In this document: one piece after another, positions 23,488-25,921 of the stretch
Layout of the letters: every line of letters begins with the position of its first letter
How positions within the stretch are numbered: position 1 is the stretch's first letter
NCBI GenBank assembly: GCA_041657445.1
Contig: JBBABV010000003.1
Location: forward strand, 1 to 56,151
DNA length: 56,151 nucleotides
Direction of reading: 5' to 3'
Source: Minisyncoccota bacterium
Lineage (GTDB): Bacteria > Patescibacteriota > Minisyncoccia > Phycocordibacterales > UBA9973
Made by a program: the position numbers and the translations under genes
Notes under the pieces: model-generated
What the model was told of the DNA's origin: nothing
The model's database searches: none
Seen by the model: the letters and a program-made list of their open reading frames with translations, nothing else

Positions 23488-23780
23488 TTGTTCTCAGTTA
23501 AGAGAACCATAACTTAAGGTCTTTCCCATTTGTCAGATTTGTTTTAGGACATTAAAATCATAGTCCATTGTACAGTCAATTGAGCTGTACAATATCGACT
23601 CAATAATCTATTTGTAAAAGGCGAACCTTTTAACAAAAAGAGATTTTCAAATTGAATTATTCCACGACCAGCTTCCGCTAGCCGTGCCTTGTTACGACTT
23701 ATTCCCTGTCACCGAGCTTACCGTAGTCCCTGCAAACGCAGAGCCTTCGGGTACTCCCGGCTCCCTTGAATTGACGGGCG

Positions 23781-24469
23781 AATGCGATTCTTAGAACATT
23801 TCGCGTTCCCACGTAGCATGCGGATTTCCCGCACTACGCGAGCCCAATAGTTTTTTTTATTCATTACTAATTTTCTTAGAAACACTTTGCAATGGATTCT
23901 TTTTGAAAATAAACATTTCCGCAGCCCAGTGTGTTTTTGATTTTCTCAAGTAATGGCTTATCTTTTTTCCTGCATTTTAATATAAAAATGCATTCTAATA
24001 CCATAACCCATTTTATAGGAGGAGGATTTCTACATTGCAACATGAAAACACCCTTCTCCGTCAGTTAATCCTACTATATAATCTTTTGATACTATTGGTT
24101 TTGTCCTTCCCATAATAATTTAAGTATAACACTAAATCAATATGGTACTACGACTCAGCTGACTTCTCGTATGCCTTGTATTTAAAGTAAATACAAATTT
24201 CCATTAACATACGAGATCTCCCACGGGTCACATATAATTCTATTCCACACATCCTGAAGATGCTTTTAAATGAATCTTCACTCTGCTCACCGCCCATTGA
24301 TTTGGTTCAGAGTTCGATTCGCATTTTTTAATTTCGGGCTATGTTTTGTTTAGAGATCCTCCGGACCAACTCCTCACGAAATTGGACCTATCTTTCAACT
24401 ACGCTCTTCTTATAAAAGAGGAGTGGATTTTAACCACTTAGTACTATATGCTGCCGGGCGCACTTATTT
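23781..24469 (-). mobile_element. Intervening sequence (intron-like) in 16S between positions equivalent to E. coli C1399 and C1400
   Basis: The conserved string GUACUCAC|CGCCCGUCA is split. Exon 1 ends at 24470 and exon 2 resumes at 23780 (ttgacgggcg). The ends are GC-rich and hairpin-rich, and the centre is AT-rich and holds the LAGLIDADG remnant. Confidence 0.8.
23876..24113 (-). pseudogene. Decayed LAGLIDADG homing-endonuclease ORF inside the 16S intervening sequence
   Basis: Hand translation from ATG at 24111-24113: MGRTKPIVSKDYIVGLTDGEGCFHVAM* (the LAGLIDADG/DGEGCF motif). It continues KSSSYKMGYGIRMHFYIKMQEKR*, and after a frame change DKPLLEKIKNTLGCGNVYFQKESIAKCF*. An in-frame stop, a frameshift and truncation are all present. 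Confidence 0.75.
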
Positions 24470-24534
24470 GTGAGTACAAGACTTGAGAACGTATTCACCG
24501 CGGTTTAGCTGACCCGCGATTACTAGCAATTCCA

Positions 24535-24571
<37 letters not shown>

Positions 24572-24968
24572 TAGGCCGCTTTTAAACGATTAGCTCAGAG
24601 TCACCTCGTCGCTGCGCGTTGTAACGGCCATTGTATTATGTGTGTAGCCCAGGGTATCAAAGGGACATGCTGACCTGGCGTCATCCTCTCCTTCCTCCCC
24701 CACCGGAAATCACAATTAAAATAATTATGAACTCTGGTGGGGGCAGTCTCGTGTGACACTTGTAACACACAATGAGGGTTGCGTTCGTTAGCCCACTTAA
24801 GGGTACAATTCAAACCACGAACTGACGACGGCCATGCATCACCTGTCCTACTGTCTTGCGAGGTCCTGACTTTCATCAGGATTTCAATAGGATTTCTAAC
24901 CCTGGTAAGGTTCTTCGTTTACCATCGAATTAAACCACATAATCCACTGCTTGTGCAAGTCCCCGTCT

Positions 24969-25532: not shown

Positions 25533-25921
25533 ATGGTCCGTGTCTCAGTACCATCGGTGGGGGTCAGGCTCTCACCTCCCCTAGACGTCATTGCCTTGGT
25601 AGGCTATTACCCTACCAACTAGCTGATATCGCACAGGCCATTCCTCTAGCGCAACAGAAAAATCTGCTACTTTACTCTTGCGAGACCATCGTGTATTAGT
25701 TCGTCTTTCAACGAATTATTCACGACTAGAGGGGATGTTCCTATGTATTACTACCTCGTTCGCCACTAAAAAACGATCCCAATCTTTCAATCAATTCTTC
25801 TTGTATTGCTACTCAAAGTCTTTCATGCTTTCATGGGGTTTTTCCGTTCGACTTGCATGCCTTATCCACGCCGCCAGCGTTCATCCTGAGCTAGGATCAA
25901 ACTCTAACTATAAAGTTATAT

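Follow-up and report, generated by a model that had tools for sequence, protein, structure and literature searches.

A probable compact group II intron with a decayed LAGLIDADG endonuclease gene at position 1400 of the 16S rRNA gene of a CPR bacterium

An insert beside the decoding center

What kind of element splits the 16S rRNA gene of this genome next to the decoding center, and how might the rRNA be rid of it? The genome (754 kb, 97% complete) has a single 16S rRNA gene, located on the minus strand of the window (the whole 56,151-nt stretch of DNA analyzed here), with its 5' end near 25912 according to cmscan. Because an insert interrupts the gene, the cmscan alignment to the 16S model ends at 24417, and the remaining 3' part (CGCCCGUCAA ... 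AAGUCGUAACAAGG) resumes at 23780 and downstream. A first-pass annotation, made from the sequence alone, had placed an insert of about 690 nt between C1399 and C1400. We found 689 nt (24469..23781, minus strand) separating C1399 (24470) from C1400 (23780), and these boundaries are correct since the 16S genes of the same genus are unbroken there. Indeed, the gene runs CTTGTACTCAC/CGCCCGTCAA without interruption in two same-genus genomes (L032 and L033), the intron-free site in same-genus genomes reads ...GTACTCAC/CGCCCGTC, and the insertion site was empty in three of three. The flanking exons are:

24470 to 24480, minus strand: end of the 5' exon, CUUGUACUCAC (16S 1389-1399), placed from uninterrupted same-genus 16S genes
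23771 to 23780, minus strand: start of the 3' exon, CGCCCGUCAA (16S 1400-1409), placed from the sequence and the same-genus comparison

The G+C content of the insert was 42% in what we describe below as domain I, 30% in the endonuclease remnant and 52% in domains V-VI, in line with the GC-rich ends and AT-rich center reported at first pass. The same 16S gene also carries a second, short expansion in the helix 6 region (approximately 25768-25838, minus strand), where cmscan counted 65 nt vs 12 in the bacterial model.

The first-pass annotation had proposed a comparison with relatives and an Infernal scan with the Rfam intron models, and we performed both. The insert was matched in 42 of 401 genomes from the same order, always at the same 16S site wherever both exon anchors could be placed, and it measured 420 to 1029 nt in such loci. 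The empty site TTGTACTCACCGCCCGTCA was present in 188 of the 401 genomes, including all three from the same genus; this tally includes one unpublished genome (G250). Intact endonucleases of 143-153 aa were found among the relatives.

Ribozyme anatomy and intron class

The Rfam scan (cmscan, E up to 10, over 23600-24600) returned a sole intron match, RF01998 (group-II-D1D4-1) at 24197..24103, which scored 32.7 bits (E 6e-4), 2.3 below the cut-off of 35. At the homologous J2/3-domain III spot, 7 of 17 related introns reached the RF01998 cut-off, with scores of 35.1-45.4 bits. RF00029, the Rfam model of domains V and VI, had no match in the window at E up to 10, and no group I family was matched over 23600-24600 at the same threshold. 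Two other RNA families, SL2 and SNORA22, gave weak chance matches far under their cut-offs and were set aside. We then delineated the following features, all on the minus strand:

24464 to 24469: 5' linker AAAUAA, 6 nt, ahead of GUGCG; every aligned homologue has a linker rich in A, of 6-7 nt or, in a few copies, more
24459 to 24463: GUGCG, the group II 5' consensus motif, from the sequence; it starts 6 nt inside the insert
24220 to 24458: domain I (RNAalifold on 23 homologues)
24458-24454 paired with 24229-24220: helix I(i) (covariation)
24438-24422 and 24421-24402: IA hairpin and IB hairpin (RNAalifold, homologue alignment)
24392-24355: subdomain IC, with a GUGA tetraloop at 24377-24374 (homologue alignment)
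24344-24247: ID stems (RNAalifold, homologue alignment)
24286 to 24291: GGUGAG of the ID3 terminal loop, proposed as EBS1; it can pair with exon CUCAC(C)
24161 to 24219: domain II, with stem CUCGUAUG (24215-24208) / CAUACGAG (24173-24166) (covariation)
24103 to 24160: J2/3 (AGCUGA) and domain III (GUCGUAGUACC ... GGGAAGGAC) (sub-cut-off match to RF01998)
23834 to 24113: domain IV, the decayed LAGLIDADG_1 gene (comparison with intact relatives)
23808 to 23843: domain V hairpin, 36 nt, with a CGC triad at 23840-23838 whose G forms a G-U wobble, a bulge of 2 nt and a loop containing GAAA
23781 to 23807: domain VI, with basal stem GCGA (23804-23801) / UCGC (23787-23784) and tail AUU (covariation)
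23788: candidate branch point, an unpaired A located 8 nt from the 3' end (A at -8)

Compensatory changes among relatives support these helices. RNAalifold predicted 55 pairs in domains I-II from 23 homologues, 42 of them with compensatory two-sided changes; one pair of helix I(i), for example, is CG in 13 homologues, UA in 6 and GC in 4. In the domain II stem (alignment columns 375-382 / 444-451), compensatory changes occurred in 6-11 of the 23 sequences. For domain V, 8 of 16 predicted pairs had compensatory changes (RNAalifold on 23-24 copies), the triad pairs C-G, G-U and C-G were unchanged in 24 of 24 copies, and the same hairpin was also the minimum free energy hairpin of the single window sequence. 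Each of the four basal pairs of domain VI was standard in 69-74 of 75 family members and took 3 to 4 different standard forms, and all 75 have an A at -8 from the intron 3' end. The 3' ends of these 75 members read AAU (52), AUU (19, the window type) and CAU or GAU (4). Under the preferred boundaries, the window copy ends in UU and lacks the canonical terminal AY. At the 5' end, the alignment column of GUGCG holds AUGCG, AAGCG, CUGUG or ACGCG in homologues. Two ORF-less relatives (L008:1223-1772 and L030:1080-1625) have approximately 60 additional nt between domains V and VI.

The GUGCG motif and helix I(i) also account for a string, CGCCCGG, that had been noted as a near-copy of the 3' exon start. 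The string does lie at 24460-24454, where it consists of the CG of GUGCG and of CCCGG, the 5' strand of helix I(i). Its reading as an exon copy was abandoned: the motif and the covarying helix argue against a target duplication, the partner strand (24229-24220) changes with it, and the string itself varies among homologues (GCGCGCAG, GTGCCCGG, GCGCTTGG).

Exon recognition is proposed to involve the loop of subdomain ID3. The end of the 5' exon, CUCAC, would serve as IBS1, being complementary to GUGAG of that loop, and the EBS1 column reads GGUGAG or GGUGGG in 23 of 23 aligned copies. Since the exon target is invariant, the putative EBS1-IBS1 pairing is beyond the reach of covariation. Another GUGAG, at 24377-24373, was considered as EBS1 and dropped, the alignment showing there a GNRA tetraloop (GUGA or GCGA) that caps subdomain IC.

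Taken as a whole, we are highly confident that the insert is a compact IIC-like group II intron in which a homing endonuclease gene replaces the reverse transcriptase, and that it belongs to a family occupying 16S position ~1400 in many CPR/Patescibacteria. The mode of removal, left unclear at first pass, is clarified by this group II anatomy, namely GUGCG, domains V and VI and covarying helices. The insert has the CGC triad of domain V, which we take to be typical of class IIC, and its ORF-less relatives are 420-570 nt long. Other IIC traits are absent: the insertion target is an rRNA strand instead of the region following a terminator-like hairpin, and the ORF codes for a LAGLIDADG endonuclease, not a reverse transcriptase. 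No group II maturase (GIIM) domain was found in the genome. Two RVT_1 genes located elsewhere in the genome (C10:16212-16901, 357 aa; C23:3030-3644, 331 aa) are without a group II maturase domain and may be diversity-generating or other retroelements.

LAGLIDADG genes reside mostly in group I introns, and group I introns occur at other CPR 16S sites (PMC11270868). An insert of the group I or archaeal (bulge-helix-bulge) type, the usual association of this nuclease family, is nevertheless extremely improbable here: no group I model was matched at E up to 10, and the helices kept among relatives correspond to group II domains I-VI. The first-pass annotation was right that group I splice-site marks are missing.

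A different possibility is that host RNases excise the insert without ligation, as RNase III does in some 23S genes, leaving a two-piece 16S rRNA and a ribozyme relic. Bacteria with fragmented rRNAs do exist, and the published CPR transcript data, as far as they are cited in PMC11270868, are described merely as inserts removed from transcripts. Nevertheless, compensatory changes hold the ribozyme core across dozens of lineages and ORF-less copies keep this core; such conservation is to be expected only where the RNA has to fold. Moreover, the decoding-center strand would be cut by a break at 1399/1400. We thus consider excision without ligation very unlikely.

For a group II intron at this site, we propose that the pre-rRNA would fold into the ribozyme and that loop GGUGAG (24291-24286) would pair with the exon CUCAC. 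This EBS1-IBS1 pairing would define a 5' splice site located six bases ahead of GUGCG. Either A23788 (branching) or water (hydrolysis, which is common in IIC and linker-bearing introns) could perform the first step. The intron would then be removed and the exons presumably ligated to CUCAC-CGCCCGUC.

The endonuclease gene and the homing cycle

The AT-rich center had been described at first pass as a decayed LAGLIDADG ORF with a stop, a frameshift and a truncation, and comparison with relatives allowed us to map a TAG, a +1 shift and two deletions. The remnant YIVGLTDGEGCF is in frame over 24113..24033 and is closed by TAG at 24032-24030, while DKPLLEKIKNTLGCGNVYFQKE lies in a second frame. The Pfam model LAGLIDADG_1 (PF00961) matched the DKPLLEKIKNTLGCGNVYFQKE fragment with an E-value of 3.9e-5; in the window copy, only fragments matched this model (24.9 and 15.9 bits). 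A profile of intact relatives matched the window remnant at E 3.5e-20. These relatives are single-motif proteins of 143-153 aa; L004, the copy that we compared with Pfam, scored 87.9 bits on PF00961. Approximately 90 of 152 codons are left in the window copy, spread over three frames. On the minus strand, and numbered as in the 152-aa relatives, the remnant reads as follows:

24113-23964: residues 1-50, including TAG at 24032-24030 (TGG in close relatives)
23968-23963: +1 frameshift, one extra A in the run
next frame: residues ~51-73 (comparison with relatives)
deletion 1: residues ~74-98, with loss of the invariant RxNHxxCYRY block
between the two deletions: a short PLQSVSK stretch
deletion 2: residues ~111-145
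C-terminal end: KKTIGLA retained; the last A-run is one A too long

In the window copy, the endonuclease gene is dead. The deletion of residues ~74-98 may be the product of an event between two FQK-coding stretches that resemble each other. The ORF opens inside the 3' strand of domain III (AUGGGAAGGAC, 24103-24113) and closes with UAG (23836-23834) within domain V, on its 5' strand, so that it fills domain IV and overlaps both adjoining domains. The conserved protein termini are thus encoded by conserved ribozyme helices. The ending ...GLA followed by UAG inside the domain V 5' strand is common to the window copy and MGRTKP-type relatives; four relatives starting with MQNL finish with ...MH instead of ...GLA. 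Outside the window, a second, related LAGLIDADG gene with an intact frame of 165 aa (C2:64719-65111, minus strand) is nested in the genome's 23S rRNA gene.

We searched a profile of the intact nucleases against contigs representing one genome per species and obtained 308 relatives. The best 80 were almost all Patescibacteria by their record titles, with groups including Paceibacterota and Nomura-, Kaiser-, Giovannoni-, Wolfe-, Zambryskii-, Vogel-, Niyogi-, Harrison- and Doudnabacteria. In at least 73 of these best 80 further species-level genomes with the endonuclease, both exon flanks were present at the same 16S site. One record (L110), titled "uncultured Gammaproteobacteria", has the CPR-type exon UACUCA. 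The protein database yielded 2892 endonuclease clusters at E up to 1e-5, and among the best 120 of them, those carrying names were all CPR. The ORF was intact, decayed or missing depending on the family copy. Hence, empty sites, intact ORFs, decayed ORFs (as in the window) and ORF-less ribozymes were all found, which is the classical homing cycle.

Past spread would have occurred at the DNA level, with a LAGLIDADG dimer cutting intron-less 16S alleles and repair copying the intron in. With its nuclease decayed, the window copy would no longer be able to home, placing it at a late stage of a cycle of invasion, fixation, nuclease decay and loss. The intron would persist only because its ribozyme, still constrained, must keep working in a single 16S gene.

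Splice register, significance and known systems

To describe the splice junctions, we compared 85 distinct introns of the family, which fell into three states:

state c, 48 introns: CUCA / 7-nt linker ... AAU / CCGCCC, with C1399 from the 3' exon
state b, 22 introns including the window: CUCAC / 6-nt linker ... AUU / CGCCC, with C1399 from the 5' exon
state a, 15 introns: C on both sides, the boundary being ambiguous by one base

None of the 85 introns lacked the C on both sides. State b has a different EBS1 loop and is without the GU between subdomains IC and ID. As one alignment column fully separates it from the others (22 of 22 vs 63 of 63), state b probably forms a single clade. The subtypes may differ by a one-nucleotide splice offset (1399/1400 in b, 1398/1399 in c) that accompanies the remodelled EBS1 loop and the 2-nt IC-ID loss. 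This would amount to natural intron sliding in which the invariant decoding-center sequence is kept. In subtype a, with C on both sides, the two registers are equivalent, and this subtype could bridge b and c. Together with the retention of the branch-point A in the family despite the 5' linker, we give this reading an even chance.

The same intron could also have its splice sites behind CUCA and ...GCAU and a linker of 7 nt, CAAAUAA, which would produce a mature 16S rRNA with U at 1399. Such a register would agree with the 7 nt that separate CUCA from the GUGCG-type motif in most subtypes and would give the intron a canonical AU end, and U1399 is still able to wobble-pair with G1504. However, uninterrupted 16S genes with U1399 were found in 0 of the 401 genomes of the order vs 188 with C1399. 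C follows CUCA in 22 of 22 introns having a single C on the 3' side, and the C was never absent from both sides among the 85 introns. In addition, with 1399/1400 boundaries, the domain VI stem with its 3-nt tail and the A at -8 are uniform across subtypes. We therefore regard splicing to U1399 as unlikely, given that no uninterrupted U1399 gene was found in 401 genomes and that only a register difference between the subtypes leaves domain VI with a uniform geometry. The 1399/1400 boundaries, with C1399 supplied by the 5' exon, remain our preferred reading for the window copy.

The insert has little importance beyond correct annotation, where it explains the truncated 16S model call at 24417. 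Organisms with such inserts can be overlooked or mis-sized by 1392R/1492R-type primers and 16S surveys. The window copy is also a clean example of the late homing cycle, with a dead nuclease and a ribozyme still constrained. The register offset between subtypes is an only mildly new point; along with the retained branch-point A, it would be of interest to specialists of group II introns, provided that RNA data bear both out.

Canonical IIC introns such as Oceanobacillus iheyensis I1 have a small ribozyme of about 400 nt without ORF, a CGC triad and a short exon pairing, traits common to the window intron, although the pairing there is putative. Unlike the window intron, they begin right at GUGYG, carry a reverse transcriptase gene and are inserted downstream of terminator hairpins.

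Group-II-intron-like inserts of CPR 16S genes located solely at position 1400 have been described as 16IS9 (Tsurumaki et al., 2024, J Bacteriol; PMC11270868). Of 53 such inserts, 39 had LAGLIDADG genes, 14 had no ORF and none encoded a reverse transcriptase. The window insert belongs to this published class, and the link drawn at first pass to CPR rRNA insertions is upheld. Both share the CPR host, the 16S site, a group II-like RNA and a single-domain LAGLIDADG_1 without reverse transcriptase. Nothing essential is different in the window copy, which is intermediate in that its gene is present but wrecked. PMC11270868 classed inserts by Rfam models and holds no description of the linker, domain VI or the one-base subtype offset. 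Since position-1400 introns are already published in CPR, the window insert is real but ordinary. The features singled out at first pass as unusual have likewise proved familiar: the site is published (PMC11270868), copies with a degenerated ORF or none are common (PMC11270868, PMC13190283), and a 5' linker before GUGYG is on record (PMC13190283, PMC4424553).

Splicing upstream of GUGYG in linker-bearing introns has been reviewed in PMC4424553. Among the introns of fungal mitochondrial rRNA genes, group IIB1 members that carry LAGLIDADG genes and 5'-terminal insertions have their splice site 1-33 nt upstream of GUGYG (Toor and Zimmerly, 2002; Mullineux et al., 2010; Li et al., 2011; all as cited in PMC4424553). 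These introns resemble the window intron in combining a group II ribozyme and a LAGLIDADG gene within an rRNA gene. They differ in their IIB1 backbone and AGC triad, and their nucleases, located in domain III or IV, often have two motifs, whereas the window intron has a CGC triad and a single-motif nuclease in domain IV. The branch-point A is gone from many linker-bearing fungal introns but is kept in 75 of 75 members of the CPR family.

The rns-1396 family of Thiotrichaceae (Liu et al., 2026, GBE; PMC13190283), for which that paper gives Salman et al. (2012, PNAS) as the earlier source on the Thiomargarita introns, combines a IIC backbone with a single-motif nuclease in domain IV; it has no EBS2 and, in all members, a 5' linker between exon and GUGYG. 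Compared by description, the rns-1396 introns of Thiomargarita and other Thiotrichaceae and the window intron share the 16S location (~1396-1400), a IIC-type backbone, a single-motif LAGLIDADG in domain IV and the 5' linker. Their hosts are Gammaproteobacteria, whereas the host of the window intron is a member of CPR. PMC13190283 gives the bacterial family only from Thiotrichaceae, whereas CPR genomes yielded far more copies (308 loci, 2892 protein clusters).
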